Assembly (NCBI GenBank): GCA_009924135.1
Contig: RFSE01000010.1
Span: 63-64,062, forward strand
Source: Pseudomonadota bacterium
GTDB taxonomy: Bacteria > Verrucomicrobiota > Verrucomicrobiia > Limisphaerales > SXTU01
Direction of reading: 5' to 3'
Length of the DNA: 64,000 bases
Shown: piece after piece, positions 5,914 to 52,839 of the stretch
Layout: each line of letters opens with the position of its first letter
How positions within the stretch are numbered: the first letter of the stretch is position 1
Notes under the pieces: generated by a model
The model's input: only the letters and a program-made list of their open reading frames with translations
Databases searched by the model: none
Told to the model about the DNA's origin: nothing
Translations under genes and position numbers: made by a program

Positions 5914-5994
5914 TCGTGCGAGGTCGTCCGACAATTGCACCTTGATGGGGCAAGCCGTTGTGAGATCAAAGCGGAGAAGTGCTTTTGTCTGGAA

Positions 5995-24591: not shown

Positions 24592-24779
24592 GGCGGGACT
24601 GAAAGAGGTGGTTAGCGAGGACCGGATGATCATGGGCGAGTCGAGTGACTGGCGCGTTGCAGGGGGTATTCACAGCCGGGTGCGGCAAGAGGCGGTGCAA
24701 ACTGAAACTTTTCAGTGTTCAGCAAGGCGTTTTCGGTTTTCAGTTCTCCCCAGACACACTGAAAACCGACTACTAAAAC

Positions 24780-38861: not shown

Positions 38862-40532
38862 GTGCTCGCCATCACGCGGCTCGACCTGTTGCTCTCGGGC
38901 CTGGCCGTGCGGCGTACGGACGGCACCTGGTTGGAGAAGAATGACTGGTTTGCCTATCTCAGCGGTCGCGCGGGCCGCACGAACTTCGTGCTGCGTGGCC
39001 TGCCACCGGGTGATTACGACCGGCTGCAGTTCAACATCGGCGTGCCGCCGGATCTGAACCATGCGGCCCCTGCGAAGTTGGAAGAGCGGCATCCGCTGAA
39101 CCCGATGGTGAACGGCATGCACTGGAACTGGCAGGGCGGGTATGTGTTCCTCGCGCTGGAAGGAAGGTTCACTCCGCTCGCGTCGGCAACGGCTGGTTCG
39201 CAAAATCAGTCGGCCAGCGGCTTCTCGTGGCATCTTGCCACGGACCGGCTCTTGATGAATGTGGAGGTGCCCGTGACGCTGGCCTTGTCCGGCGAACGGG
39301 CGGCTGACCGGCGGACCACGCTGCGGGTCGCGCTGGAGCTGGCGCAGGTGTTTGACGGCATAATACTGGATGACGAAACCAGTTCCACCCATTCACGACC
39401 GGAGGACCGGTTGGCGGACAAGTTGCGACAGCGGGTGGAACAGGCGTTTTTACCGGGGCAGCGCGCAGACACGGCCGGCCCGGTGGAAAAGCTGGTGACA
39501 CCGTTAACGGCTCAATCCGGCCCAGTTGTCGGTACGCCTTATCGCTTCACCATGTCCGCCGCCTTTCCCAAGCCCGCGCTGCCGCGTGACAATCCACTCA
39601 CGATGGAAGGCGTCGCACTGGGCCGCCGCCTGTTCAACGACCCGTTGCTCTCACGCGGCGGGAAGCAGTCCTGTGCGTCGTGTCATCAGATGCAGGCCGG
39701 CACGGTGGACGCGGGCAAGGCCTTCAGCGTTGGCGTGGACGGCCAGCCCGGCAAACGCAATGCCATGCCGCTCTACAACCTCGCGTGGAAGTCCGAGTTC
39801 TTCTGGGATGGGCGCGCCAAATCACTGCGGCAGCAGGCGCTCATGCCCATTCAGGATGAATTGGAGATGCATGAAACGCTGGCGAACGTGGTCGGGAAAC
39901 TGAAAGCGGCGGGCGGGGCGGAGAGTTACCACGAGGTGTTTGCGTGGGCGTTTGGTTCGTCTGACATTACCGCTGAACGGGTGGGACTGGCCTTGGAGCA
40001 GTTTCTGCTGACGCTCACTTCCCACGACGCCAAGTTCGACCGGGTAATGCGGCGGGAAGCGCTGTTCACGGCGGAGGAACAACGGGGTTTCGAGCTGTTC
40101 CACACGGAACACGATCCCCGGCGGGGGTTGTTTGGCGCGGATTGTTTTCACTGCCATGGCGGACCGCTGTTTCAGAACGTTGCGTTCGCCAACAATGGCC
40201 TGGACCACGAGCCGCGCGACCTTGGCCGTTACCTCGCCACGGGGCGCGAGGGCGACCGGGGCAAGTTCGCCGTGCCATCACTGCGCAACGTGGAGCTGAC
40301 TGCGCCTTACATGCACGACGGGCGGTTTGCCACGTTGGAAGAGGCCGTGTTCCATTACGTTCGCGGCGTGCGGCACAGCCCGACGCTGGACCCGAACCTG
40401 GCGAAGCACCCACCGGGCGGGGTACGCCTCCCGCCCGAGGATGTGCGGGCGCTGGTCGCATTCCTGCGCACCCTCACCGAAGAGTCGCTTCGCCCAGGCG
40501 CGCGGAACGTAGCGCTTGCGCCATCGCCATGA
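38862..40532 (+). CDS. MbnP-like domain fused to dihaem cytochrome c peroxidase (MbnH/MauG-like); lacks its own signal peptide
   Basis: MbnP-type blocks LAITRLDLLLSGLAVRRTDGTW, GDYDRLQFNIGVPPDLNH, HPLNPMVNGMHWNWQGGYVFLALEGRF. CCP blocks GRRLFNDPLLSRGGKQSCASCH, FFWDGRA, CFHCHGGPLF, PSLRNVELTAPYMHDGRF. Confidence 0.8.
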   Translation: MLAITRLDLLLSGLAVRRTDGTWLEKNDWFAYLSGRAGRTNFVLRGLPPGDYDRLQFNIGVPPDLNHAAPAKLEERHPLNPMVNGMHWNWQGGYVFLALEGRFTPLASATAGSQNQSASGFSWHLATDRLLMNVEVPVTLALSGERAADRRTTLRVALELAQVFDGIILDDETSSTHSRPEDRLADKLRQRVEQAFLPGQRADTAGPVEKLVTPLTAQSGPVVGTPYRFTMSAAFPKPALPRDNPLTMEGVALGRRLFNDPLLSRGGKQSCASCHQMQAGTVDAGKAFSVGVDGQPGKRNAMPLYNLAWKSEFFWDGRAKSLRQQALMPIQDELEMHETLANVVGKLKAAGGAESYHEVFAWAFGSSDITAERVGLALEQFLLTLTSHDAKFDRVMRREALFTAEEQRGFELFHTEHDPRRGLFGADCFHCHGGPLFQNVAFANNGLDHEPRDLGRYLATGREGDRGKFAVPSLRNVELTAPYMHDGRFATLEEAVFHYVRGVRHSPTLDPNLAKHPPGGVRLPPEDVRALVAFLRTLTEESLRPGARNVALAPSP

Positions 40533-40703
40533 GGCCATTTTTTCACTTTGCTCGTGTGAGCAAACGGCGGACGGATCGGTTTAATTCGTATGCACGATCC
40601 GTCCGCTGTGTCTCTTTTCGTGCCGGGGCGACGCGGTCTGGCCGGAGATTTCTTTGCTGCGTTGTTCCCGGTGGTCCGTGTTAGATTGCCCGCATTCTTC
40701 ATC

Positions 40704-41717
40704 ATGATGTTAAGCCCTTGCCCTTCACGATTTGCTCTCCCGATGGCCGGACTTGCGTTGTTCGCGGGTGTGCTGGTCGCCAGTGCCCAGCCCCGGCCGG
40801 ATGAGCCGCGTGGTCCTGGTGGTCGCAATGGCGAGAAGATGGGCAAGCAATACGCCGCCCCGGCGGGGGATGGCCAGAGTCCCGGCGCGAACCAGGTGAG
40901 CATCGTCGTCGAGGGGGGCTTTCGCGTGATCCGCGCCAACGGGCTGCCGGATCATGCGCCGGGTCAGTTTCCCAATCGCGGCAACCCGAATGTGATTGCG
41001 GCGCAGAAGTACAACTACCGCATCCCGCTTCAGCCCAAGGAAAACCCGCAGTTCACCCCGGTGCGGATGCACCCCTTTGGGGTTGCCCTCAACGGCGTCG
41101 TCTTCGATCCCGGGGCGGCGGAGTGGTGGCAGATGGACCCGCGCTCGGGCTGGACCCTCGACCCGATCAGCGGCTCGCAGAAGCTGGGCATCGACCGGCA
41201 CAATGCGCATGTGCAGCCCAGCGGGGCATATCATTACCACGCGTTGCCGACGGGGTTGATCGAGCGGCTCACGGGCGGCAAGGAAAAGATCGCCCAAGTT
41301 GGCTGGGCGGCGGATGGCTTTCCCATCTACGGGCCGTGGGGCTACAGCGAGGCCAAGAGCACGAACAGTGCGTTGAAGCGGTTGAAGTCCAGCTACCGCC
41401 TGCGCGAAGGCACGCGCGCCAGCGGACCCGGCGGGAAGTTCGATGGCAGTTACGTTGAGGATTTCCAGTATGTCAACAGAGCCGGCGATCTGGATGAGGC
41501 AAATGGGCGATTTGGTGCCACCCCGGAGTTTCCCCAGGGCACTTACTACTACGTTCTGACCGATGATTTTCCCTTCATCCCGCGTCAATACAAAGGCACG
41601 CCGGACAGCAGCTTTTTCCGACATGGCCCGCCCCCCATGCGATTCGGAGCTGGTGATGTGGGCTTCCGGGGTGGTCCGGGATCGAAAGGACCGCCGCCCG
41701 GAAAAGATGGCAGGTAA
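40704..41717 (+). CDS. Secreted YHYH-domain protein
   Basis: Signal peptide MMLSPCPSRFALPMAGLALFAGVLVASAQ. GAYHYHALP, GWAADGFPIYGPWGY, LDEANGRFGATPEFPQGTYYYVLTDDFPFIPRQYKG. Gly/Pro/Arg-rich N- and C-terminal tails. Confidence 0.85.
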   Translation: MMLSPCPSRFALPMAGLALFAGVLVASAQPRPDEPRGPGGRNGEKMGKQYAAPAGDGQSPGANQVSIVVEGGFRVIRANGLPDHAPGQFPNRGNPNVIAAQKYNYRIPLQPKENPQFTPVRMHPFGVALNGVVFDPGAAEWWQMDPRSGWTLDPISGSQKLGIDRHNAHVQPSGAYHYHALPTGLIERLTGGKEKIAQVGWAADGFPIYGPWGYSEAKSTNSALKRLKSSYRLREGTRASGPGGKFDGSYVEDFQYVNRAGDLDEANGRFGATPEFPQGTYYYVLTDDFPFIPRQYKGTPDSSFFRHGPPPMRFGAGDVGFRGGPGSKGPPPGKDGR

Positions 41718-41735: not shown

Positions 41736-43409
41736 GTGCTTGTGAGTGCGACGCCCTCCGGGTCAACCCCAGAACAGCCGGATCAACCCCGCCCCGACAG
41801 CGAGGACAGCGAAACTTTACCCCGTGAGGCCGCGCATCCCAGCGGCTCCAGCGGCTCGGCCGCGATGAAGTTCCGCCCCCCGGTGCGCGATCTCTCCGGC
41901 TCCCAGCTGGGCGAATACCGGCTCGTCCGCAAGATTGCCGAAGGCGGCATGGGCGAGGTCTATGAAGGGGTCCAGCTCAAGCTCGACCGGCGGGTCGCCG
42001 TAAAGCTCCTGGCCGAGCAGCTCGCGCGCGAACCTGAGTTCCTCGCCCGGTTTGAGCGCGAGGCCAAGTCCGCTGCGGCGCTCAATCACCCGAATGTGTT
42101 GCAGGTCTATGACTTCGGCTGCGCGAACGGGCAGAATTATTTCGTGATGGAACTGGTGGACGGGCTGGATCTCTCCCTGTACGTCAAGGAACATGGCAAG
42201 CTGGCCGTTCCGGTGGCGCTGGAATATTTCGAGCAGGCGGTTCACGCCCTCCAGTTCGCGGCCCGGCACGCCATCATCCACCGCGACGTGAAGCCCGCCA
42301 ACTTGATGCTCACGGGCGACGGCCGGGTGAAGGTCGCCGACCTCGGTCTCGCCAAAAAATTGACCGACGATTCCGATGTGACCATGACCGGTGTGGGCAT
42401 GGGATCGCCGCATTTTCTCGCGCCCGAGCAGGCGGACGACGCCGCGCATGTGGATCATCGCGCGGACATCTATTCGCTCGGGGTCACGCTGCTGTTTTTG
42501 CTCACGGGCCGGCGGCCGTTTGACGGGGCTTCGAATTTCTCCGTTGTCCTGGCCCACGCGAACAAACCGCTGCCCACGGGCATTGAACTGGGCACGCCGT
42601 TGCCCGATGAAATCGAGCGTTTCATCAAGCGCATGACGGCCAAGACGCCCGAGGCCCGGTACCAAAGCTACGAGGAACTGCTCGCCGACTTGCAGCGCGT
42701 GAAGGCGGGGCAGGGCCCCCGGCAGGACTGGGGGCAGGTCCTGAAGAATTCAAAGACGGTATGGATCACCGGCGCGGGTATTATGGCTTTGGTTGCGCTT
42801 GTGTTCGCCGCCCCGTGGATAGGGTCCGACCGGAAACCAACCGCCAGCGAATCCGAGCGACAAACGATCCAGCCCTCGCCGCCGGGTGATCGTCCGGAAC
42901 GTGCTGAGCCCCGCCCGCCATCCCAAGGTGATCGGCCGGGCTTCGGGGACCCGAGGGAAAAGGGCAAGGGCGGGGCGGGTAAGATGGATTTGGGCGGTGG
43001 TTTGCGTCCCCCCTGGCCACGGCGGCCACCTCCCGATCGGTATCCGCTGCGCGATGGTCCAATTCCGCAGATGCTCGCCGAGGCGGACGCCTATGCTGCC
43101 GCCAACAAGGAGGAGTATGTGGAAATTATCCACCGTTACGGACAGATCGAAGAAAAAGCTACCGGCACCCCGTGGCAAAAGGAGGTCGAGCGCCGTTTTG
43201 ACCAGGCTCAGGACCGGTTGCAGGCGGCCTCCAGTGCCTATATTAAACAAACGGAAGCCAAGATGGAACCATTGTTGCAAGCCGGCAAATATGAAGAGGC
43301 CTACCAGCTCTGGCGGGATTTTCCCTTGCGCATCCAAACTCATGAAACCGATCAGGAGGTTTTGCAACTGCTGCGCCGCCGTCTGCCGCCGGACTTTGTG
43401 CCCCGATGA
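41736..43409 (+). CDS. Hanks-type Ser/Thr protein kinase with one TM helix and an extracytoplasmic Pro/Gly/Arg-rich + helical domain
   Basis: G-loop EGGMGEVYEG, VAVKLL, HRDVKPANLML, DLGLAK, SPHFLAPEQ. TM helix VWITGAGIMALVALVFAAPWI. GTG 41736 or ATG 41865 as start. Confidence 0.9.
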   Translation: MLVSATPSGSTPEQPDQPRPDSEDSETLPREAAHPSGSSGSAAMKFRPPVRDLSGSQLGEYRLVRKIAEGGMGEVYEGVQLKLDRRVAVKLLAEQLAREPEFLARFEREAKSAAALNHPNVLQVYDFGCANGQNYFVMELVDGLDLSLYVKEHGKLAVPVALEYFEQAVHALQFAARHAIIHRDVKPANLMLTGDGRVKVADLGLAKKLTDDSDVTMTGVGMGSPHFLAPEQADDAAHVDHRADIYSLGVTLLFLLTGRRPFDGASNFSVVLAHANKPLPTGIELGTPLPDEIERFIKRMTAKTPEARYQSYEELLADLQRVKAGQGPRQDWGQVLKNSKTVWITGAGIMALVALVFAAPWIGSDRKPTASESERQTIQPSPPGDRPERAEPRPPSQGDRPGFGDPREKGKGGAGKMDLGGGLRPPWPRRPPPDRYPLRDGPIPQMLAEADAYAAANKEEYVEIIHRYGQIEEKATGTPWQKEVERRFDQAQDRLQAASSAYIKQTEAKMEPLLQAGKYEEAYQLWRDFPLRIQTHETDQEVLQLLRRRLPPDFVPR

Positions 43410-44689
43410 AACTTAAGTTCCTCCTCACCACCGCCCTGTATCTGAGTGGCTGGCTTTCCCTTTCCGCTGCGGAGCTGGACTGGTCACGCTTCCGTGGCGC
43501 GAATGGTTCCGGCATTGCGGTGGGCGCGCAGCCGCCCACGACGTGGAGCGACACGCAGAATCTGAAATGGAAGACCGAGTTGCCAGGAGCGGGCACCTCC
43601 AGCCCCATCGTGGTCGGCGAGCGCGTGTTTCTGACGTGCTGGACCGGTACTGGCGCGGTGACGCGTCAGCTCGTGTGCGTCAGCCGGGCTTCCGGGAAGA
43701 TTCTCTGGGCCAAGTCCGTGGCGGGCGAAGCCTCTCCCGACCGTTATGACGGCTTCCTGCAGGAGCACGGCTACGCGAGCCACACGCCGGTCAGCGACGG
43801 TGAAAAAGTTTTCGTTTATTTCGGTCGCGGTGGTGCGGCAGCTTTCGATCTGGAGGGCAATCAACTGTGGCAGGTGAAGTTGGGGAATGATGCGAACGGC
43901 AAAAACTGGGGTTCCGCCGCCAGTCCCATACTCTACAAGAACACCGTCATCATCACTGCGTCTGAAGAGGCCCATGCCGTGGTCGCGCTCGACAAGGCCA
44001 CGGGCAAGGAGGTCTGGAAGTCTCCCGGTTCGGCACTGGAATACGTCTTCAACACACCGGTGCTGGCTGGCAGCGACACACAACCAGAACTGGTGCTGGT
44101 GCTGCCCGATGAGCTGTGGGCGCTAAATCCCGACAACGGCAAGCTGCGTTGGTATGCCGCGACCGGCCTGCCGGGAAACATTGCTCCGAGCGCCGTCGTG
44201 GGGGATGGCGTTGTGTATGCGTTTGGCGGTTTCCCGCAGCTCGGCGCGGTCGCGTATCGCACCGGAGGCAAAGGCGATGTCGGTCAGACGCATCAACTCT
44301 GGATCACCCGCAACAGCACCTACGTTCCTACGCCAGTGCTGCACGAGGGCCGCCTCTACGTCGTGACCGATCAGGGTTTCGCGCTCTGCCTGGATGCGAA
44401 GACGGGCGAGGAAGTTTACAAGGAGCGGCTTCCCGGAGCGAGCGCCACGGGGCGCGGTGGCAAGCCCTTTTACGCCTCGGCAATATTGGCGGATGGAAAC
44501 TGCTACGCGGTCAGTCGGCGCAATGGCACGTTTGTCATCGCAGCGAAACCGCAGTTCCAGCTCGTCGCGCAAAACACGTTTGCCAGCGACACTACGCAGT
44601 TCAACGCCACTCCGGCGGTGAGCGGCAAACAGCTTTTCCTCCGCTCCGACAAGTATCTCTATTGCGTCGAGGCTGGAGCAAAACCTTGA
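43406..44689 (+). CDS. PQQ-like (BamB-like) beta-propeller repeat protein, secreted
   Basis: Signal peptide MKLKFLLTTALYLSGWLSLSAAE. Blade repeats (..SGKILWAK.., ..GNQLWQV.., ..TGKEVWKS.., ..GKLRWYA.., ..TGEEVYKE..). ATGA overlap with the kinase stop. Confidence 0.85.
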   Translation: MKLKFLLTTALYLSGWLSLSAAELDWSRFRGANGSGIAVGAQPPTTWSDTQNLKWKTELPGAGTSSPIVVGERVFLTCWTGTGAVTRQLVCVSRASGKILWAKSVAGEASPDRYDGFLQEHGYASHTPVSDGEKVFVYFGRGGAAAFDLEGNQLWQVKLGNDANGKNWGSAASPILYKNTVIITASEEAHAVVALDKATGKEVWKSPGSALEYVFNTPVLAGSDTQPELVLVLPDELWALNPDNGKLRWYAATGLPGNIAPSAVVGDGVVYAFGGFPQLGAVAYRTGGKGDVGQTHQLWITRNSTYVPTPVLHEGRLYVVTDQGFALCLDAKTGEEVYKERLPGASATGRGGKPFYASAILADGNCYAVSRRNGTFVIAAKPQFQLVAQNTFASDTTQFNATPAVSGKQLFLRSDKYLYCVEAGAKP

Positions 44690-44714
44690 TCCCAAACATC
44701 AACCCTCAGTGTCT

Positions 44715-45182
44715 ATGAAAAAAATCCTGTTAGTTCTTATTGTCGGTGCACTCGGAATCTTCCTGCTCTCCACTTCGGCCCAGGACCCGCAGCGTCCGCA
44801 GCCCGGACGGGATGGGACGTCATCGCAGCCCGGACGGGATGGGACGTCATCGCAGCCCGGACGCGATGGAGCGTCACCGCAGCCGGGCCAGCCAGGTTTC
44901 CGGCCGCCCAAGCACCCGCTCGAAGTGGCGCTGGATGCCAATGGCGACGGGGTTATTGATGCGCAGGAAATTGCCAATGCCTCCGCTGCGCTCAAGAAGC
45001 TCGACAAAAATGGCGACGGCAAATTGACCGAGGACGAGTATCGTCCGGCCCGGCCGATGGGTGGTCCCGGTGGGCGCGGTGGCTTTGGCGGACCGGGCGG
45101 CGGTGGTCCCGGCAATGGCCCGCAGGGCCGCGACAGCAAGGACGCCAGCCCGGCCAACAAACGACCACCGCTGGACAAGTAA
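44715..45182 (+). CDS. Secreted EF-hand Ca-binding protein with QPGRDG(T/A)S(S/P) repeats and Gly-rich tail
   Basis: Signal peptide MKKILLVLIVGALGIFLLSTSAQ. Two canonical 12-residue loops, DANGDGVIDAQE and DKNGDGKLTEDE (44934-45038). Tail GGPGGRGGFGGPGGGGPGNGPQGRD. Confidence 0.85.
   Translation: MKKILLVLIVGALGIFLLSTSAQDPQRPQPGRDGTSSQPGRDGTSSQPGRDGASPQPGQPGFRPPKHPLEVALDANGDGVIDAQEIANASAALKKLDKNGDGKLTEDEYRPARPMGGPGGRGGFGGPGGGGPGNGPQGRDSKDASPANKRPPLDK
44799..44879 (+). repeat. 27-bp tandem repeat x3 (third copy diverged)
   Basis: CAGCCCGGACGGGATGGGACGTCATCG at 44799 and 44826, and CAGCCCGGACGCGATGGAGCGTCACCG at 44853. In frame (QPGRDGTSS x2, QPGRDGASP). Confidence 0.9.
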
Positions 45183-45485: not shown

Positions 45486-46316
45486 GTGAAAAACGAGAAC
45501 CTACCAGAGGCGGGCGGAAAACCGGAGGCCCAACCGGTCCGCGACTGGGTCGCCTCGACCGTGCGGTGGGGGACTTTGGGAGTCAGCGTGGTGGTGGCGG
45601 TCGTGGTGGTTTCCTGCGCCACGGTCACCCGGACGGTGGTCGAGATGCCGACCATTCCCGGGGCCGAGTTCGTGGGGAACCAGAACTGCGCGCAGTGCCA
45701 CGCGGAGACGGTCCGGGATTTCAAGACCTCCAGCCACGCCAAGCTACAGGCCAAGGGCACCAACGCCGTTAACCTTGGCTGCGAAGGCTGCCATGGCCCG
45801 GGTAGTTTGCACGCTCAGGCCGGTGGCGGACGCAACAACATCCTGAATCCACGGCGCGACGCCGAGACGTGCTTCAAGTGCCATCTCGACAAACGGGGCG
45901 AATTCTCCCTCCCGCACCATCACCCGGTGCTGGAAGGCAAGGTGAGCTGCGGCGATTGTCACCATCCCCACAAGGGTGACGCCATCGCGGGTGGAGGCAC
46001 CCACCTCGCCTCGGAGCACGAGACCTGTGGCCGGTGCCACACGGCCCAGCGTGGGCCGTTCGTCTTCGAGCACGAGGCGGTGCGGGAAGGCTGCACCACC
46101 TGCCACAAGCCGCACGGCTCGGTGAACCGCCGGATGCTTACGGAGCGCAATTCCAACCTGTGCTTCAAGTGCCACTTCCAGCAGCAGACGGCGGCCGGCA
46201 AGGTCTTCAATGGCGGGGTTGATCACACTTCGTTCCTCAAGCGCGGCACCTGCTTCAGCGGCGGCTGTCACGAGGCGGTCCATGGTTCCAACATTGGTTC
46301 ATCCCTGCGGTTCTGA
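45486..46316 (+). CDS. Multihaem c-type cytochrome, 7 CxxCH + 1 CxxxxCH (octahaem), probable lipoprotein; MtrA/PioA/MtoA-like periplasm-to-barrel cytochrome
   Basis: CAQCH, CEGCH, CFKCH, CGDCH, CGRCH, CTTCH, CFKCH plus CFSGGCH. Lipobox-like VVVSC after a hydrophobic helix. C-terminal ...CHEAVHGSNIGSSLRF. GTG start. Confidence 0.9.
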   Translation: MKNENLPEAGGKPEAQPVRDWVASTVRWGTLGVSVVVAVVVVSCATVTRTVVEMPTIPGAEFVGNQNCAQCHAETVRDFKTSSHAKLQAKGTNAVNLGCEGCHGPGSLHAQAGGGRNNILNPRRDAETCFKCHLDKRGEFSLPHHHPVLEGKVSCGDCHHPHKGDAIAGGGTHLASEHETCGRCHTAQRGPFVFEHEAVREGCTTCHKPHGSVNRRMLTERNSNLCFKCHFQQQTAAGKVFNGGVDHTSFLKRGTCFSGGCHEAVHGSNIGSSLRF

Positions 46317-46317
46317 A

Positions 46318-48471
46318 ATGGAGAACGTCATGAAAACCCCAGCAAATCGCCCTCTCAATCCCTCGGTCGAAAGCCGGCATGGCGCGTTGGTGCTCGCGGT
46401 GGCACTGGCCGGCGGTTCGGTGGCCTCCGCCCAAACCGTGACCAACAACGTGGCCGGGGCCAAGCCTGCGGCCGAGGCCAACCCGGCCGAGGAGCCGGTG
46501 AACTGGATCACCCTGGGTGCCGGGGGCGTGTCCACGAGCGGCAACCGTGCGGCGTTTGAGGAACGCTGGGGCAGATCGCAGGGAGTCATGGGTGGCTTGC
46601 AGGACTTTCATTACGAGTTGTTGTTTGGGAAGAAGGGGATGCTGGAACTGGACGGCAAGGCCATGTACGGCCAGCAGGATTACTCGGTGAAGCTGGGCGT
46701 GGCGGACCCGGATGTCGGGTTCCTGCGCGGCGGGTTCAAACAGTCGCAGACCTGGTACGACGGCAGCGGCGGGTATTACCCGGCCACGGGCAAGTCGTTT
46801 TCCCTCTACAGTGACGAACTGAGTTTGAAACGCGGCGAGTATTGGGTCGAAGGCGGCCTGACCCCGCCGGATGGGCCGATGCTGACGTTGAAACTGGCCC
46901 GCGAGTATCGCCGGGGCACCAAGGATTCGCTCATCTGGGGCGATTCGACCCAGGGCGGCACCGCGCGCGGAATGGTGCCCAGCTTTCGTGACCTGAATGA
47001 GTTGAGAAACATCATCATCGCCGACTTGAAACACACCGTCGGCAAGACCGATGTGGGCATCGGCCTGCGGTATGACAAGGTGGACAACAACGACGCGCTC
47101 AAGGAACACCGGAAGCCCGGGGAAGCGGGAGCGGATCGGTATGTGACCCAGCGGGACCTGTTTCAGGCGGACATGCTGAATTTCCACGGCTTCACCGAGA
47201 CGCGCTTCAATGACGCGGTGATGCTGACCACGGGCTATTCCTACACCCGGCTGAACACCGATCTTGGCGGCAGCCGGATTTATGGTGCTGGTTACGATGC
47301 GGTTTACTCCAAGACCTCGGTGAACCGGCAGTTCCATGACGAGGGTTACTACAATCTCACCGGCGGCTCGATTGTGGACCAGTATGTGATGAACCTCGCA
47401 CTGCGGCTCGAACTGGCAGAGAACCTGGTGTTGATCCCTTCGTTGCGGGCGGAAAAGATTGATACCACGGGCAGCACCTCTTTCACCGAGACCTCCGTGG
47501 GAGCGGGGCCAGGCTTTGTCACGGCCGAGAGCAACCTGTTGAATTCACGTCAGAACGGTTTTTTGACGGTTTCCGAAGCCATGGAGGCCCGCTACACGGG
47601 CTTGCAGAACTGGCTGCTCTACGCCCGGGGCGATTGGTCGGAAGGCGATGGCTATCTGCGCGAGACGGAACAGGACCTCACCGCCGGAACAACGGGCATC
47701 AACCGCAGCACGGACTCCGAGCGATTCACGCAGAAGTACACCTTTGGTGCCAACTGGTATCCGCTGCGGAAGCTTCATTTCGCCGCCCAGTTCTACCACA
47801 AAAACGTCGAGAACGATTACACCCATCTGGTGGATTCGACGCCCAACACCAGCGGGGACCGTTATCCGGCCTACCTGCTGGCGCACCATCTCACTACGGA
47901 CGATTTCAACGTGCGGGCGACGTGGCGGCCCTTGCCCAATGTCACCTCGGTGACCCGGTATGACTACCAGATTTCCAGCATCGACACCTACCCGGATGGG
48001 CTGATTGGCATCGAGAGCGCTCAGACCACGGCGCACATCATCAGCCAGACCCTGACCTGGGTACCGTGGTCGCGGCTCTTCCTGCAGGGTACTTTCAGTT
48101 ACGCGCTGGACTCCACCACCACGCCAGCCAGTTCGCTCACGGGCGGGGCGGCCGGTCTAGTCAGCGACGCACGCAATGACTACTGGCAGGCAACGGCCGC
48201 CGCGACATTCGTGGTGGATGACAAGAGCGATTTGAAGGCCAGTTACTTCTATTACCGGGCCAACAATTTCATCGATAACTCGGTTTACAGCATGCCTTAC
48301 GGCACGAGCGGCAATGACCACACGGTGAACGTCAGCCTCGACCGCAAGTTCAGCAAGACCGTGAAGGGCACCATCAGCTATGGCTTTTTCCGTCATCGCG
48401 ATGACACCACTGGCGGGCTGGATAATTACACCGCCCACACCATTTTTTCGTCCATCACCTACCGTTTCTAA
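46318..48471 (+). CDS. Large outer-membrane beta-barrel (about 717 aa), MtrB/PioB-like porin partner of the octahaem cytochrome
   Basis: Signal peptide ...GALVLAVALAGGSVASAQT. Long series of alternating-hydrophobic strands rich in Y/W/G/D/N/T. Terminal ...FSSITYRF (aromatic C-terminal residue of OMPs). ATG lies 1 nt after the cytochrome stop. Confidence 0.75.
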   Translation: MENVMKTPANRPLNPSVESRHGALVLAVALAGGSVASAQTVTNNVAGAKPAAEANPAEEPVNWITLGAGGVSTSGNRAAFEERWGRSQGVMGGLQDFHYELLFGKKGMLELDGKAMYGQQDYSVKLGVADPDVGFLRGGFKQSQTWYDGSGGYYPATGKSFSLYSDELSLKRGEYWVEGGLTPPDGPMLTLKLAREYRRGTKDSLIWGDSTQGGTARGMVPSFRDLNELRNIIIADLKHTVGKTDVGIGLRYDKVDNNDALKEHRKPGEAGADRYVTQRDLFQADMLNFHGFTETRFNDAVMLTTGYSYTRLNTDLGGSRIYGAGYDAVYSKTSVNRQFHDEGYYNLTGGSIVDQYVMNLALRLELAENLVLIPSLRAEKIDTTGSTSFTETSVGAGPGFVTAESNLLNSRQNGFLTVSEAMEARYTGLQNWLLYARGDWSEGDGYLRETEQDLTAGTTGINRSTDSERFTQKYTFGANWYPLRKLHFAAQFYHKNVENDYTHLVDSTPNTSGDRYPAYLLAHHLTTDDFNVRATWRPLPNVTSVTRYDYQISSIDTYPDGLIGIESAQTTAHIISQTLTWVPWSRLFLQGTFSYALDSTTTPASSLTGGAAGLVSDARNDYWQATAAATFVVDDKSDLKASYFYYRANNFIDNSVYSMPYGTSGNDHTVNVSLDRKFSKTVKGTISYGFFRHRDDTTGGLDNYTAHTIFSSITYRF

Positions 48472-48492
48472 GTCAGCTCAACTCTGAATCCC

Positions 48493-48831
48493 ATGAACTC
48501 AAAGCAAACCCTCATCGTAACCACCGTCACATTTCTCCTGGCCGCCGCTCCCTCCTTGCTGGCGGCCGATGTCGCGGAAAACTGGACCAAGAATTGCGGC
48601 TCCTGCCACGGTGCCGACGGCACGGGCAAAACCAAGGCCGGGCGCATGGCAGGGGCGAAGGATCTCACTGATGGGGCCTACCAGAAGCAATTCACCGACG
48701 AACAAATGCTTCAGCGTCTCAAGGATGGCGTGACCGACAAGGGCAAGGAGAAGATGAAGCCCTATAAAGGCGTGCTCTCCGACGATGAATTGAAAGCGTT
48801 GGTCGCCAAGGTCCGGACATTTGCGAAGTAA
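48493..48831 (+). CDS. Periplasmic monohaem class-I cytochrome c
   Basis: Signal peptide MNSKQTLIVTTVTFLLAAAPSLLAA. Single CGSCHGADGTG. Distal KMKPY (Met ligand). ...LSDDELKALVAKVRTF. Confidence 0.9.
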   Translation: MNSKQTLIVTTVTFLLAAAPSLLAADVAENWTKNCGSCHGADGTGKTKAGRMAGAKDLTDGAYQKQFTDEQMLQRLKDGVTDKGKEKMKPYKGVLSDDELKALVAKVRTFAK

Positions 48832-48888
48832 GCCGGTCACCTGCGGGTGACCCACGCGTGGTGAAACGGTCTGCAACCCTTCGACCGG

Positions 48889-49614
48889 ATGAATGAGAAC
48901 CAGAAAACCTCGCTCGCCCTGACCAGTCTGACGGTCCTCTTCAGCCTGGCCGCGCTGGTGTTCTGGATGACGCCTCACGCTGGCACCACGAACAAGAGCA
49001 GCGGGCCATTGGTTGGAACGGCATTCACCAACACCGCCACCTTCCGCCTTTCCGTCGCCGACTTGACGAAGGCGGGTGGCGATGTGTCGGGGCTGGATTG
49101 CTACGCCTGCCACAGCAAGGACAAGCCGGTGGCTCCGAAGTTTGACGCGGCCGGCCGGTTGATTCCTTCGGTCGCTCATCGCGATGTGGTGTTTTCACGG
49201 ATGAATTGCGCCGGTTGCCACGCAGCGTCAGAGAAGGTGGAACTCAAGTTTGATGCCGAAGGAAAAATCCTCACGCCGGCCGCCCACACCAATGACGTGG
49301 CCCGCCACGGTCGCACCATCGGCAATGACCACTGCTTCAATTGTCACGACGCAACAAACCTTACCGAATTGCACACGCCCGGGGGCAAGAAGCTCAAACT
49401 CGCCGACAGCACGCAGCTCTGCGGGAGCTGCCACGGCCCGAGCTATCGTGACTGGGAGGCCGGTCTGCATGGACGACACAATGGCTTCTGGAACGTGAAG
49501 CTGGGTCCGATGGAGCGCAAGGACTGCACCTCCTGCCACGACCCACATGCGCCCGATTTGCCACACCTGAAACCCCTGCCGCCGCCGTTCCGCACGGCCT
49601 TGAGAGGACACTGA
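48889..49614 (+). CDS. Membrane-anchored pentahaem c-type cytochrome
   Basis: N-terminal TM helix LALTSLTVLFSLAALVFWM. CYACH, CAGCH, CFNCH, CGSCH, CTSCH. Confidence 0.9.
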   Translation: MNENQKTSLALTSLTVLFSLAALVFWMTPHAGTTNKSSGPLVGTAFTNTATFRLSVADLTKAGGDVSGLDCYACHSKDKPVAPKFDAAGRLIPSVAHRDVVFSRMNCAGCHAASEKVELKFDAEGKILTPAAHTNDVARHGRTIGNDHCFNCHDATNLTELHTPGGKKLKLADSTQLCGSCHGPSYRDWEAGLHGRHNGFWNVKLGPMERKDCTSCHDPHAPDLPHLKPLPPPFRTALRGH

Positions 49615-49615
49615 C

Positions 49616-50572
49616 ATGGCCGCCAACCCCAACTTGCCGAACCTGGCCTCCCCGCCGCCTCCCGCTGGCGGGACCAGCCGCCGGAGCTTTCTCCGCACAT
49701 CCGCCGCCGTGGCCTCCGGTCTCGCCGCGATGGCCGCGAGCCTGGCCCCGCTGCGTGAACTGAGCGACTTCGGTTCCGTGGAGGAGTTCCTGCAAAAGCA
49801 CTACAAGGAACTAACGCCCGTCGAGATGGAGCAGGCGTTGGCGCGCATCCGCCGCGAGGTCGAGAAGCAGTACGGCCTGCGTCCGCACGTGCGCGATCTC
49901 AAGCCGATGGACGGCGTCGAGTTTGTCTATTGCCTGAACCTCACGCGGTGCATTGGCTGCCGGAAATGCGTTCATGCCTGCGTCGCGGAGAACAACCAGT
50001 CGCGCAGCCCGGAGATTCAATACATCCGCGTGCTCAAGATGCCCAACGGCACCTTCGACATGGAAAAGGGCGACCACCACTACGTCACACCGACCGTACC
50101 GGAAAAGGGTTTTTACTACATGCCGGTGCAGTGCCATCAATGCAAGAATCCGCCTTGCGTTAAGGTTTGTCCCGTGGACGCCACCTGGCAAGAGAGCGAT
50201 GGCATTACCGTGATCGATTACGACTGGTGCATCGGCTGCCGCTATTGTGAGGCCGCGTGCCCCTACTTCGCCCGGCGCTTCAACTTCGCTGAACCCAAGA
50301 TTCCGAAGGAACAGGTCAATCTGGACATGGCCTATCTGGGCAACCGGCCGCGTCACAAGGGCGTGATGGAAAAATGCCACTTCTGCATCCAGCGCACGCG
50401 TGCCGGCAAATACCCCGCCTGCCTCGAAGTCTGCCCCACCGGCGCCCGCAAGTTCGGCAACATTCTTGATCCCGCGAGCGAGGTTTCTCAAATCCTCCGT
50501 AACAAGCGTGTATTCGTGCTGAAGGAGGAGGTCGGGACCCTGCCGAGGTTCTTCTACTACTTTGATGTATGA
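49616..50572 (+). CDS. Tat-exported 4x[4Fe-4S] ferredoxin-type subunit (NrfC/HybA/PsrB-like)
   Basis: Twin-arginine signal TSRRSFLRTSAAVASGLAAMA. Four Cys clusters: CIGCRKCVHAC, CHQCKNPPCVKVCP, CIGCRYCEAACP, CHFCIQR...CLEVCP. Starts 1 nt after the preceding stop. Confidence 0.9.
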   Translation: MAANPNLPNLASPPPPAGGTSRRSFLRTSAAVASGLAAMAASLAPLRELSDFGSVEEFLQKHYKELTPVEMEQALARIRREVEKQYGLRPHVRDLKPMDGVEFVYCLNLTRCIGCRKCVHACVAENNQSRSPEIQYIRVLKMPNGTFDMEKGDHHYVTPTVPEKGFYYMPVQCHQCKNPPCVKVCPVDATWQESDGITVIDYDWCIGCRYCEAACPYFARRFNFAEPKIPKEQVNLDMAYLGNRPRHKGVMEKCHFCIQRTRAGKYPACLEVCPTGARKFGNILDPASEVSQILRNKRVFVLKEEVGTLPRFFYYFDV

Positions 50573-52239
50573 ACCGGACCGCGAAAAACTTTCTGAGCTT
50601 TCTCTGGCGCTGCGGCCAGCTTGCCTGCGAGGGCGACTGGCGGTATTTCGCCTGGACCGGTGCATTGTTCCTGCTCTGCCTCGTGGGCCTCAACGCCTAT
50701 GCGAAACAGTTTGTTCAGGGGCTGGTTTCGACGGACATGACGGACCAGGTTTGCTGGGGCGTTTACATCGCGAACTTCTCCTTCCTCGTCGGCATCGCGG
50801 CTTCGGCGGTCATACTGGTCATCCCGGTCTACCTCTACAAAAACGAGGAGCTTCACGACCTGGTCATCTTTGGGGAACTGCTCGCGATCGTGGCGATCCT
50901 CATGGCGCTGGCGTTTGTGATGGTGGACCTTGGCCGGCCCGACCGCTTCTGGCACATGGTTCCGGGCATCGGCAAATTCAACTTCCCCGGGTCGCTGTTG
51001 AGCTGGGATGTCATCGTGCTCAACGGCTATCTGGCGTTGAATATTTACGTCGCCGCGTACCTGCTTTACTGCCGGTATGAAAAGCGCCCTCCGACAAAGG
51101 CACTTTACCTGCCGGTCATCTTCTTTGGGATTTTTTGGGCGGTTTCCACCATGATGGTTTCAGCCTTCCTTTACGTTGGCCTCGGTGGGCGGCCCTTTTG
51201 GAATTCGGCCATCATCGGCCCGCGGTTTCTGGCCTCGGCCTTCACGGCCGGACCGGCGCTCATCATCCTCGCGTTGCAAGTGGTCCGCCGCCTCACGGCC
51301 CATTCCCTTGCTTCCCCAACGGAGTCAGAGGTCGCCCCACTGGGGGTGCACCATGTCACGAAGGAAGACTGGGACCTGCTCGCCCGGGTTTTGCCGGAAC
51401 TCAGTTCCGCGTCGGAAGAGGCCCGCCTGCGCGTGCTTGCCAGCGGTGCCGTATTGGAAGTCCCCGCCGGCCGCACGCTTCTGCGTCAGGGCGCGCGGAG
51501 CGATGAGGCGTTTTTCGTGCTGCGCGGCCGGGTGTCCGTGAACCGTACCGACGGCGGCCGCATCCGCACCGTCCGCACGCTGGGTCCCGGCGAACAGTTC
51601 GGAGAGATTTCTGCGCTCAACGGCACGCCCCGCACGGCCACCGCCGTGGCCGACCAACATGCCTGGGTGCTCCGGTTGCCCTCGGCTGCGCTTCGCGAAC
51701 TGATGAAATCCCCCGCTCTCGACCATGTCATCCGCGCGCGGATGCACGACCGGCTCATGATCAGCGACCGTGCTTTGCTCACGCTGCGCCACATCGTGCA
51801 GGTCGCGATGATCATCAACGTGTTCCTCTTGCTGAACGAGGTCTTCAAGGAGTTCTATACCGGCAACCTCCATGTCGCCGCTTCGCAATATCTCTACTTT
51901 GGCCTGGATGGGCATCATGCGCTGGTGCCGTGGATTTGGACCGCCATCGTCTGCAACCTGGTTGCTCTCACATTGTTGCTATTGCCGATCAGCACGAGCC
52001 TTAAGTGGCTTGATGTCGCGTGCGTGCTGGCCGTCGTCGGCATCTGGATCGAAAAGAGCATGGGGATCATCATTCCCGGCTTCGTGCCATCGCCTCTCGG
52101 TGAGATCGTGGAATACTCCCCCACCTGGAACGAGACGCTCATCTGCTTTGGCATCTGGGCGTTTGGCCTGCTGTGCTACACCGTGCTCCTGCGCGTCGCC
52201 GTGCCGATCCTGCAGGGGCGCTTCACCCGTATCGCATAA
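50569..52239 (+). CDS. NrfD/PsrC-type integral-membrane quinone-site subunit (about 10 TM) with an inserted cyclic-nucleotide-binding domain
   Basis: NrfD hallmark VMVDLGRPDRFWHM and many TM helices. Residues ~265-395 have a CAP/cNMP fold signature: FFVLRGRVSV...LGPGEQFGEISALNGTPRTATAVA. ATGA overlap with the Fe-S gene. Confidence 0.85.
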   Translation: MNRTAKNFLSFLWRCGQLACEGDWRYFAWTGALFLLCLVGLNAYAKQFVQGLVSTDMTDQVCWGVYIANFSFLVGIAASAVILVIPVYLYKNEELHDLVIFGELLAIVAILMALAFVMVDLGRPDRFWHMVPGIGKFNFPGSLLSWDVIVLNGYLALNIYVAAYLLYCRYEKRPPTKALYLPVIFFGIFWAVSTMMVSAFLYVGLGGRPFWNSAIIGPRFLASAFTAGPALIILALQVVRRLTAHSLASPTESEVAPLGVHHVTKEDWDLLARVLPELSSASEEARLRVLASGAVLEVPAGRTLLRQGARSDEAFFVLRGRVSVNRTDGGRIRTVRTLGPGEQFGEISALNGTPRTATAVADQHAWVLRLPSAALRELMKSPALDHVIRARMHDRLMISDRALLTLRHIVQVAMIINVFLLLNEVFKEFYTGNLHVAASQYLYFGLDGHHALVPWIWTAIVCNLVALTLLLLPISTSLKWLDVACVLAVVGIWIEKSMGIIIPGFVPSPLGEIVEYSPTWNETLICFGIWAFGLLCYTVLLRVAVPILQGRFTRIA

Positions 52240-52243
52240 TAAC

Positions 52244-52705
52244 ATGGCGCACCAACTAACCGCTGACGACGCCCGGCAATCCATGCGTGACCATTGTGCC
52301 GCCAAAGGTCAGGAGGTCCGCGAAAGACTTGGTCCGTACCTCGGCTGGACGGAACTGAACCGTCTGCTCGAAGACCGCAAGTTGGTACGTTACCCCTGCA
52401 CCATCGCCTTCGATTCTTCACCGCTCCAGCCCGAGGAGATGGCGTATGCCGAGCCGCTGGGGGCCCAGCCCGAAGCGGGCTTCCGCATTTGCGTCCATCC
52501 CCGTTTTCAGACCGACCTTGATGCCGTCGTGGCCCTGGTCCTCTACCAGTTGGTGGCCGTGAACTACGGTGACTTCGCCACAGCGGAGGATGCCGAGGCG
52601 TTTGGCAGTGCGGCGGTGGGACTGAGCCGGGACGAGTATTATCAACGGCTTTGTGAACTTGCGGACCAGCCCAGTACGGTCGCTGCCGTTGCTGGCAACG
52701 GTTAG
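52244..52705 (+). CDS. Hypothetical soluble protein (153 aa), last gene of the cytochrome operon
   Basis: ATG 4 nt after the NrfD-like stop (MAHQLTADDARQSMRDHCAAKG...). No signal peptide, no haem or Fe-S motif, no family recognised. Confidence 0.55.
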   Translation: MAHQLTADDARQSMRDHCAAKGQEVRERLGPYLGWTELNRLLEDRKLVRYPCTIAFDSSPLQPEEMAYAEPLGAQPEAGFRICVHPRFQTDLDAVVALVLYQLVAVNYGDFATAEDAEAFGSAAVGLSRDEYYQRLCELADQPSTVAAVAGNG

Positions 52706-52839
52706 TCGCGTTTCCGGCCCCAACCGGATGTTCCTTCACGCGTTCAGAAACCCGTCGTGCTGCGGGCCGGCAAACCCAAGGCTCGCTTGTTCTCCAGAAC
52801 TTTTGGCATCATGCTATTTACGGTGTTCGTTCTGCTCAG

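Follow-up and report, generated by a model that had tools for sequence, protein, structure and literature searches.

Introduction

The electron conduits MtrAB of Shewanella, MtoAB of Sideroxydans and Gallionella, and PioAB of Rhodopseudomonas are each encoded by a cytochrome gene that lies directly before a gene for an outer-membrane barrel. In Verrucomicrobia, He et al. 2017 described a "novel porin-multihaem cytochrome" system, its porin predicted to have 20 or more strands and its periplasmic partner carrying eight haems, which its authors considered not homologous to Mtr or Pcc (PMC5615132), and Fiorito et al. 2026 reported the Verrucomicrobiota clusters EET3 and EET4, with "MtrA-like" models, together with transcription of porin-cytochrome clusters of this phylum in anoxic peat (bioRxiv 10.64898/2026.05.27.727921). 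Here we analyze a 64,000-nucleotide stretch of a genome placed by GTDB in the Limisphaerales (contig RFSE01000010.1 of assembly GCA_009924135.1, positions 63 to 64,062; hereafter the window). It holds a seven-gene operon, g1 to g7, in which a cytochrome gene again directly precedes a barrel gene, and whose products probably make up an Mtr/Mto-type electron conduit across the cell envelope, with an inner-membrane quinone module of its own.

Several elements of such a pathway have precedents. Limisphaera, within the Limisphaerales, respires ferrihydrite and ferric citrate, has MK-7 as its sole quinone and encodes porin-associated multihaem cytochromes (PMC13608581). The Mto pathway uses monohaem shuttles (PMC4412085, PMC13390432), and SirCD, an NrfCD-type quinol dehydrogenase, can replace CymA in Shewanella for ferric citrate respiration, with CbcSTU as the NrfCD-type precedent in Geobacter (PMC11434368). 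Neither the core pair of porin and eight-haem cytochrome, already proposed for Verrucomicrobia in 2017 and 2026 (PMC5615132, bioRxiv 10.64898/2026.05.27.727921), nor the feeding of such pathways by NrfCD-type quinol dehydrogenases (SirCD, CbcSTU; PMC11434368) is new. Compared with the published accounts, what appears to be new is the MtrA homology and predicted lipidation of the octahaem protein, the predicted 26-strand MtrB-like fold of the barrel, and a four-gene NrfD module that forms part of a larger island and carries an inserted cyclic-nucleotide-binding domain.

Soils, peat, lakes and groundwater harbour Verrucomicrobiota in abundance, and where humic or particulate organic matter and iron serve as respiratory acceptors, carbon is thought to be diverted from methanogenesis.

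An octahaem MtrA homologue precedes a predicted 26-strand barrel

A sequence-only reading of the window had described seven same-strand open reading frames (ORFs) as a candidate extracellular electron-transfer conduit. We recovered this arrangement exactly, on the plus strand, with intergenic gaps from g1 to g7 of 1, 21, 57, 1, -4 and 4 nt, the start of g6 overlapping g5 (Table 1). The haem counts given for the cytochromes, the twin-arginine translocation (Tat) signal of g5 and the C-terminal YRF of g2 were all found again in the translations. The seven-gene arrangement is far beyond chance, and its gene order recurs in many species genomes.

Table 1. Features of the seven-gene operon and its immediate 3' side, in window coordinates
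Feature	Position	Strand	Size	Annotation
g1	45486-46316	+	276 aa, GTG start	octahaem lipoprotein c-type cytochrome, MtrA/DmsE homologue by sequence
g2	46318-48471	+	717 aa	outer-membrane beta-barrel, 26 strands and no plug predicted
g3	48493-48831	+	112 aa	soluble periplasmic monohaem class-I cytochrome c
g4	48889-49614	+	241 aa	pentahaem c-type cytochrome, one N-terminal transmembrane (TM) helix
g5	49616-50572	+	318 aa	Tat-exported four-[4Fe-4S] protein, NrfC/PsrB/DsrO/ActB2 type
g6	50569-52239	+	556 aa	10-TM NrfD/DsrP-type quinone-interacting membrane subunit
cyclic-nucleotide-binding domain in g6	51301-51774; Pfam core (aa 297-380) 51457-51708	+		PF00027
g7	52244-52705	+	153 aa	conserved accessory protein of the NrfD module, no convincing family
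weak terminator-like hairpin	52713-52728	+		8 nt past the g7 stop codon; from a consensus scan

The haem sites of g1 comprise seven CXXCH motifs and a C-terminal CX4CH (CFSGGCH), a pattern kept in 71 of 72 homologues. In a search of PDB sequences, the only strong solved relative was 6r2q_A (E 3.5e-31), a 333-aa chain in the entry for the Mtr complex that we take to be MtrA. The alignment runs in two stretches over query residues 64-272 of 276, pairing g1 haems 3-8 with MtrA haems 5-10 and g1 haems 1-2 with the start of MtrA. Among NCBIfam models, g1 matched the GSU2203 decahaem family (E 4e-49) and TIGR03508, the DmsE family (E 8.1e-47; 159.8 bits, below the cutoff of 192.2); the ten CXXCH sites of the MtrA/DmsE family are not present in g1, which has eight sites. 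Judged from these alignments, g1 is a true MtrA homologue, and the haem pairing indicates an MtrA that is two haems shorter. In the PDB sequence table, chain 6r2q_A bears the name "Cystathionine beta-synthase"; its sequence is that of a decahaem cytochrome.

The hydrophobic leader of g1 ends in a lipobox, VVSC, with Cys44 encoded at 45615-45617. The lipobox Cys is present in almost all of the 72 homologues, 22-26 residues (mostly 23) before haem 1, and not one of them has Asp at +2. In E. coli, lipoproteins without Asp at +2 are sorted to the outer membrane; by this rule, g1 would be targeted to the outer membrane. Retention at the inner membrane, an outcome that the sequence-only reading had named as speaking against a conduit, is not indicated by the kept lipobox and the lack of Asp at +2.

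The barrel protein g2 starts with a signal peptide, lacks Cys altogether and has ...ITYRF as its C-terminus. An AF2 model built on a 58-sequence alignment (pLDDT 86.9, pTM 0.80) shows 26 long strands and no plug, with only residues 1-53 disordered, and its best PDB fold match in a Foldseek search was MtrB (6r2q_B; E 9e-14, TM-score 0.59/0.64). TonB-dependent receptors reached TM-scores of only 0.30-0.45 against the same model. We therefore rejected g2 as a TonB-dependent receptor or FadL on the missing plug, the 26 strands and the low receptor scores; the predicted barrel is neither small (fewer than 16 strands) nor plugged, either of which had been proposed as grounds for doubting a conduit. 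Membership of g2 in the MtrB/PioB sequence family was rejected as well, there being no Pfam or NCBIfam match and no MtrB found by its profile. The two family searches that the sequence-only reading had suggested came out divided, with g1 matching the DmsE/MtrA family (E 8e-47), albeit below the cutoff, and g2 drawing no match to MtrB/PioB models. We found 140 homologues of g2, none with a functional name; all those with a named source are Verrucomicrobiota, including Limisphaerales and Pedosphaera, and a few carry weak precomputed matches to the general porin families PF07396 and PF13609.

To place the operon in a wider context, we identified genes in related loci by tblastn with score thresholds. 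A barrel-anchored scan of species-representative genomes found relatives in 256 stretches, of which 80 loci were kept, and a g6-anchored metagenome scan found 540 relatives, of which 80 loci were likewise kept. An octahaem gene lies directly upstream of the barrel gene in all 70 barrel loci with at least 1.2 kb of upstream sequence, so that the barrel homologues, far from lacking synteny with multihaem cytochromes, keep it without exception. Of the 73 barrel loci with downstream sequence, 60 have a g3-like monohaem gene. Furthermore, 13 of the 80 barrel loci encode a 9-haem cytochrome about 570-620 aa long, which is probably a surface component and whose gene, where inspected, immediately precedes g1.

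Proposed shuttle and relay subunits

g3 has a Sec signal, no Cys lipobox and a single haem site, CGSCH, and matches Cytochrome_CBB3 (E 1e-10) and Cytochrom_C (E 3e-9) in Pfam; the distal haem ligand is likely the Met of its KEKMKPY motif. A g3 homologue also precedes the NrfD module in loci without a barrel. g4 carries five CXXCH motifs behind an N-terminal hydrophobic helix (aa 9-27). It gave only generic multihaem matches in Pfam and no significant match among PDB sequences, with no ActA chain at E<=1. Identification of g4 as ActA, which is pentahaem and has an N-terminal membrane helix, drew no support from sequence.

g5 carries a twin-arginine motif, SRRSFLR, and 16 Cys arranged in four clusters. 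Among NCBIfam models it matches DsrO best (E 4e-51; 173.8 bits against a cutoff of 200, which it does not reach), with QrcC and further NrfC-type Fe-S families ranking next. Its PDB matches include ArrB-like 6cz7_B, PsrB 2vpw_B and, in 6btm_B and 6f0k_B, the Fe-S domains of ActB; it aligns only with the C-terminal Fe-S part of ActB (6btm_B residues 772-945). Because g4 has a signal anchor and g5 a Tat signal, both are placed on the periplasmic side.

An NrfD-type subunit with an inserted cyclic-nucleotide-binding domain

g6 matches the Pfam NrfD model PF03916 (E 5e-34; 118.8 bits, cutoff 25.8), has ten predicted hydrophobic segments and adjoins the Fe-S partner g5 with its Tat motif, all of which place it in the NrfD/PsrC family. 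The closest solved NrfD-type subunits are the ActC chains 6f0k_C and 8k9e_C of alternative complex III (ACIII), which match weakly (E 0.002). g6 also exceeds the cutoff of the NCBIfam DsrP model NF045798 (379.8 bits, cutoff 350), in two stretches split by an inserted domain. We rejected g6 as the true DsrP of a Dsr complex, since no DsrM, DsrK or DsrJ lies alongside: nothing DsrM- or DsrK-like was found among the operon genes or the domain-scanned flanking ORFs, and g4 has no DsrJ match. A DsrP label for g6 would, on this gene content, be an over-annotation.

The inserted domain, which the sequence-only reading had overlooked while correctly naming g6 NrfD-like, is a cyclic-nucleotide-binding domain (PF00027; E 2.5e-20, 72.7 bits, cutoff 27.5). 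Its matches among PDB sequences are PKA and PKG regulatory domains (E 1e-14 to 1e-11), and it is of the CAP/PKA-R type. The domain lies within a 163-residue loop linking TM6 to TM7, where the two four-helix bundles of the 10-TM NrfD fold adjoin. The loop is on the same side of the membrane as the N and C termini, the side that is richer in Lys and Arg, and it is predicted to be cytoplasmic because it shares that side with the termini and the more positive loops. Within the domain, the Glu and Arg of the phosphate-binding cassette, FGEISALNGTPRTATA (FGE..SAL..PR.A), are conserved in every one of the 120 relatives listed, and all of the top 120 database relatives of g6 contain both NrfD and the cyclic-nucleotide domain. 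The insertion is present in 63 of the 80 NrfD-anchored metagenome loci and absent from close orthologues of about 400 aa, a distribution that implies a clean gain or loss of the domain. We found no description of an NrfD protein fused to a cyclic-nucleotide domain in the literature, as far as our incomplete coverage of it extends.

These features suggest that cyclic AMP (cAMP) or cyclic GMP (cGMP) most likely modulates the NrfD module through the putative sensor domain of g6. One tentative possibility goes further and describes a second-messenger-gated respiratory module, in which cytoplasmic cAMP or cGMP, acting allosterically, would open or shut either the quinone site or the path taken by protons, the passage of electrons to the surface would be switched at the level of protein rather than transcription, and g7 would be a new cytoplasmic subunit.

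g7 itself has no signal peptide and no TM helix and is presumably cytoplasmic. As the sequence-only reading had it, this 153-aa protein belongs to no convincing family: its only Pfam match is a marginal one to DUF3263 over 26 residues, and its AF2 model (pLDDT 91.4) has no significant match among PDB folds (best E 0.9, including a weak zincin-like match that we do not trust). All 286 homologues are unnamed or hypothetical, those with a named organism being Verrucomicrobiota. C52, H85 and C137 are invariant in the family, and some members have Cys/His-rich C-terminal tails. g7 accompanies the NrfD module whether or not the nucleotide domain is present.

The NrfD module recurs within larger haem-protein islands

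Among the NrfD-anchored loci, the pentahaem and Fe-S genes lie upstream of the NrfD gene in 40 of 40, the pentahaem gene directly before the Fe-S gene, and g7 lies downstream of it in 56 of 61. A barrel gene is found within 10 kb of the module in 11 of the 23 loci with enough flanking sequence, and the neighbourhood of conduit and module is kept in same-strand, divergent and downstream arrangements (L042, L067, L116, L119, L122). In the window, the NrfD module is the sole inner-membrane module adjoining the conduit; in locus L082, it stands alone. These comparisons back the proposal, made from the letters of the window, that an NrfD/Fe-S/pentahaem unit rather than a CymA/NapC-type protein is the inner-membrane entry point, the module recurring beside the porin-cytochrome pair.

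Gene maps of the loci show an island that recurs in many genomes, with the order [9-haem]-[octahaem]-[barrel]-[monohaem]-[pentahaem]-[Fe-S]-[NrfD]-[g7]-[monohaem]-[ImcH-like]-[CbcL-like, 1-2 copies], exemplified by L145, L103 and L112, with subsets that vary among genomes. The ImcH-like proteins are about 490 aa long, with an N-terminal helix, six CXXCH motifs and NapC/NirT homology, and the CbcL-like proteins have 9-11 haems fused to an FdnI-type cytochrome b. Among the 47 barrel loci whose downstream sequence extends over 6 kb or more, 15 contain the NrfD module, 25 an ImcH-like gene, 4 a CbcL-like gene and 11 none of them; at least one of the three inner-membrane modules is thus present in 36. 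The idea that the NrfD module and the ImcH-like/CbcL-like genes are strict alternatives at one position was dropped, as they often co-occur in one island. Taking these loci together, we conclude from their gene content that the NrfD module is a quinone-pool/periplasm electron module of the haem network that is frequently, but not exclusively, coupled to the conduit.

Some further observations concern these islands. The block [monohaem]-[ImcH-like]-[CbcL-like, 1-2 copies] follows directly past g7 in L090, L092, L103, L104, L109, L110, L145 and L151, so that up to three different inner-membrane quinone-linked modules stand side by side, which recalls the potential-tuned ImcH/CbcL/CbcBA set of Geobacter. 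ResB-like and CcsA-like System II biogenesis genes, labelled by similarity among the loci and a reading of the N-termini rather than by a family-model search, occur in or near islands at L027 (12211-15260) and L030 (15182-18517) and likewise at L116 and L119 (3645-6599) and L155 (2-3025); their presence fits a dedicated supply of haem attachment. In L082, the NrfD module is preceded by a 725-aa DUF6797 protein (5986-8163) with weak SGL/NHL propeller and Ig-like matches, which may be a different periplasmic redox partner. The records of L001-L003, L007, L014, L016, L029, L045, L048 and L055 are titled Klebsiella, Akkermansia muciniphila, Bifidobacterium or Proteobacteria; these titles look like placeholder or wrong taxonomy labels on Verrucomicrobiota clusters and were disregarded.

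Proposed electron path and alternative readings

MtrA homology, a predicted 26-strand barrel without a plug, synteny and a conserved inner-membrane module together support reading the operon as a candidate conduit. In the path that we propose, g6, a haem-free NrfD/DsrP-type subunit, would bind (mena)quinol and pass electrons to the Fe-S clusters of g5, seated on its periplasmic face, and from there to the haems of g4. The membrane-anchored g4 would relay them between g5 and g3, and g3 would carry them across the periplasm to the g1-g2 pair. There, g1 would be held by its lipid anchor, probably in the inner leaflet of the outer membrane, and would thread the lumen of the g2 barrel, making a haem wire across the outer membrane that could deliver electrons to the cell surface; the same path might also be run backwards.

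Several points weigh against this assignment or against its outward direction. The resemblance of g2 to MtrB is, as modelled, at the level of fold only: g2 matched nothing in Pfam, even at E<=1, or in NCBIfam, PF11854 included, and its 58-sequence profile found no MtrB chain among PDB sequences at E<=10, the one match being a chance one at E 0.45. The g2 model is a monomer prediction made without the cytochrome partner and cannot show g1 in the lumen, and the sorting rule behind the predicted targeting of g1 is that of E. coli and may not hold in Verrucomicrobiota. Unlike MtrC/OmcA systems, the window encodes no extracellular multihaem cytochrome. His/Met class-I cytochromes are usually of high potential, and g3, which by its sequence looks like one, would suit uptake or delivery to an oxidase more than low-potential mineral reduction. 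The labels ImcH-like and CbcL-like are assigned here by domain composition, not by direct comparison with Geobacter. Finally, because about half of the NrfD-anchored loci have no barrel within 10 kb, the NrfD module is not dedicated to the conduit.

On balance, we modestly prefer the outward direction, in which electrons from menaquinol would reduce Fe(III) or humic or particulate organic acceptors outside the cell, because ImcH-like and CbcL-like genes accompany the module and relatives carry 9-haem proteins, because cultured Limisphaera reduce ferrihydrite and ferric citrate with MK-7 as sole quinone (PMC13608581), and because related clusters are transcribed in anoxic peat (bioRxiv 10.64898/2026.05.27.727921). 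The Mto-like layout, the window's lack of a surface cytochrome and the class-I shuttle argue, by analogy, for inward flow, and the sequence-only reading had likewise left the direction open. The same hardware run in reverse would draw electrons from Fe(II), reduced humics or minerals outside the cell, in the manner of MtoAB and PioAB, and pass them to a terminal oxidase through the monohaem protein or uphill through the NrfD module into the quinone pool. An octahaem cytochrome, a barrel, a class-I monohaem cytochrome and a quinone module with no extracellular cytochrome do mirror the Mto system of Sideroxydans (PMC4412085, PMC13390432), and g3 belongs to the Cytochrome_CBB3 class-I family, whose members are usually high-potential. 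We nevertheless hold this reversal to be rather unlikely: the ImcH-like and CbcL-like genes of related islands have counterparts in Geobacter that are quinol oxidases for metal reduction, the upstream 9-haem cytochrome that 13 of 80 relatives add is as in outward Mtr systems, and flow into low-potential menaquinone would be strongly uphill. Limisphaera, moreover, are Fe(III)-reducing organoheterotrophs with MK-7 that showed no lithoautotrophic growth on H2/CO2, the sole lithotrophic condition tested (PMC13608581).

Two further readings were weighed. g4 to g7 with the monohaem protein might be a general quinol:cytochrome c oxidoreductase, a minimal analogue of ACIII serving periplasmic or aerobic respiration, that is merely a neighbour of the porin-cytochrome pair. 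The module does lack a barrel in L082 and in about half of the NrfD-anchored loci, NrfD proteins with the cyclic-nucleotide insertion outnumber barrel homologues, and the helix-anchored pentahaem protein, Fe-S protein and NrfD subunit parallel ActA, ActB2 and ActC, with ActC chains the closest, if weak, solved relatives of g6. However, only 57 nt separate g4 from the conduit genes upstream on the same strand, the neighbourhood survives in several arrangements (same strand, divergent and downstream), and barrel-less loci often still contain ImcH-like and CbcL-like genes. g4 lacks an ActA sequence match, g5 lacks an ActB1 domain and there is a single NrfD-type subunit, while Verrucomicrobia already have canonical ACIII (PMC5615132, PMC13608581); we regard such a role as improbable. 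It is hardly credible, in turn, that g2 is an ordinary solute porin or transporter and g1 a periplasmic reductase for a soluble substrate, with no electrons crossing the outer membrane. The absence of sequence similarity to MtrB and the weak matches of a few g2 homologues to PF07396 and PF13609 would agree with it, but 26 strands far exceed the 16-18 of general porins, the model has no plug and MtrB as its top fold match, synteny with the MtrA homologue is invariant (70/70 loci), and g1 aligns with MtrA over residues 64-272, a span that takes in the C-terminal haems, which in the Mtr complex extend to the cell surface.

Read as an Mtr/Mto-type conduit with its quinone module, the locus would provide a complete and testable gene set from quinone pool to cell surface in Verrucomicrobiota, and the so-called novel porin-cytochrome of the phylum would be a divergent, lipid-anchored system of the Mtr type. 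The inner-membrane partner of the verrucomicrobial conduit could then be an NrfD-type module, often with a cyclic-nucleotide sensor; if the sensor works, this would be a rare case of direct second-messenger control over a respiratory quinone module. Iron-reducing Limisphaera strains are now in culture, which makes these predictions genetically testable.

Operon boundaries and other features of the window

The genes on either side of the operon are unrelated to it (a Ser/Thr kinase, a BamB-like propeller and an EF-hand protein on the 5' side; an Asp-Al_Ex transporter and MgtE on the 3' side), so the unit is taken as 45486-52705. A consensus promoter scan saw no sigma-70-like site upstream of g1, and terminator-like sites in the region did not exceed the shuffled expectation, only the position of the hairpin behind g7 being suggestive. 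The kinase (41736-43409), the BamB-like PQQ propeller (43406-44689) and the EF-hand gene (44709-45182), all on the plus strand, directly precede the operon, and a Pkinase gene also lies just 3' of the same seven-gene cluster in L081 (13769-16039).

Further upstream, a 556-aa protein (38862-40532, +) joins an MbnP domain (E 2e-24) and a peroxidase domain of the di-haem CCP/MauG type (E 2e-50), in sequence resembling an MbnP-MbnH copper-acquisition pair in fused form. A YHYH-family protein comes next (40590-41717, +), and a second protein with a YHYH domain, of 1053 aa, lies just upstream of the fusion (35484-38645, +). A 1307-aa ORF (27126-31049, +) has a signal-peptide-like start and no Pfam match and lies where the AT skew is extreme (0.53 at 28-30 kb); its product is probably highly repetitive and its coding strand rich in A. 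On the minus strand, an 826-aa "Planctomycete-specific" cytochrome protein (22153-24633) carries PSCyt1, PSCyt3 and PSD2-5 domains and is a marker of the PVC superphylum; Planctomycete-type cytochrome genes of this kind are enriched in Verrucomicrobia of the oxic layer (He et al. 2017, PMC5615132). Together with the named g2 homologues (Limisphaerales, Pedosphaera), the Planctomycete-type cytochrome domains of the window assign it to an uncultured member of the Verrucomicrobiota.

Comparison with known systems

The NrfD module of the window resembles SirCD, Cbc4 (CbcSTU), DsrJOP and ActA/ActB/ActC in combining a periplasmic four-cluster Fe-S protein, a haem-free NrfD/PsrC-type subunit and an anchored c-type cytochrome. 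Its order g4-g5-g6 is the cytochrome, Fe-S, NrfD order of dsrJOP, and g6 passes the DsrP cutoff. It differs from DsrMKJOP in having neither DsrMK nor DsrAB adjacent and in its pentahaem g4, which has no DsrJ match, where DsrJ is trihaem. g5 stays below the DsrO cutoff and lacks the molybdopterin-like ActB1 domain of ACIII, which has two NrfD-type subunits (ActC and ActF) where the operon has one. g7 is extra here relative to all these modules, and we found an inserted cyclic-nucleotide domain described for none of them. With the Pcc system of Geobacter (OmaB/OmbB/OmcB), the shared features are an octahaem periplasmic cytochrome with a porin and several alternative inner-membrane modules; the window lacks the outer-membrane dodecahaem lipoprotein and encodes no multihaem cytochrome beyond those of the operon. 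Pcc proteins are reportedly unrelated to Mtr, whereas g1 is, by its alignment, related to MtrA.

In overall layout, the Mto cluster of Sideroxydans lithotrophicus ES-1 (the outer-membrane pair MtoA-MtoB, the monohaem MtoD/PmcA and the inner-membrane NapC/NirT cytochrome ImoA) matches the operon, and related Verrucomicrobiota islands extend the likeness with two monohaem genes, one before each inner-membrane module. The inner-membrane partner is a NapC/NirT tetrahaem cytochrome in Mto and an NrfD-type three-subunit module here; haem ligation is bis-His in MtoD (PMC4412085), whereas g3 has a likely Met ligand predicted from its sequence. Mto works inward, in Fe(II) oxidation, and for the present operon the outward direction is slightly preferred.

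To the Mtr complex (6R2Q), the likeness lies in the sequence homology of g1 with MtrA and in the modelled fold of g2, with 26 strands and no plug. In encoding no extracellular cytochrome, the operon resembles MtoAB and PioAB rather than MtrCAB. MtrA has ten haems and g1 eight, the missing pair corresponding to two haems of the N-terminal half of MtrA, and the last haem site of g1, CX4CH, sets it apart from the Mtr, Mto and Pio cytochromes. MtrA is soluble; g1, by contrast, is predicted to be a lipoprotein with a conserved lipobox. An N-terminal Cys motif is reported for MtrB, while g2 has no Cys at all.

The nearest systems are those already described in the same phylum (PMC5615132; He et al. 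2019, PMC6344600; and the EET3/EET4 clusters), which combine a porin with an eight-haem cytochrome and sometimes include an extracellular multihaem cytochrome. The published texts mention no NrfD/Fe-S/pentahaem module, cyclic-nucleotide domain or g7, the terms "NrfD" and "inner membrane" occurring zero times in the texts searched. Their proteins were called non-homologous to, or highly divergent from, Mtr, whereas g1 is, on its alignment, a clear MtrA homologue. Relatives of the window's genes also occur in SPRUCE peat genomes (L030, L047, L070, L077). Comparing published descriptions rather than sequences, we conclude that these verrucomicrobial porin-cytochrome clusters very probably belong to the same family as g1-g2.

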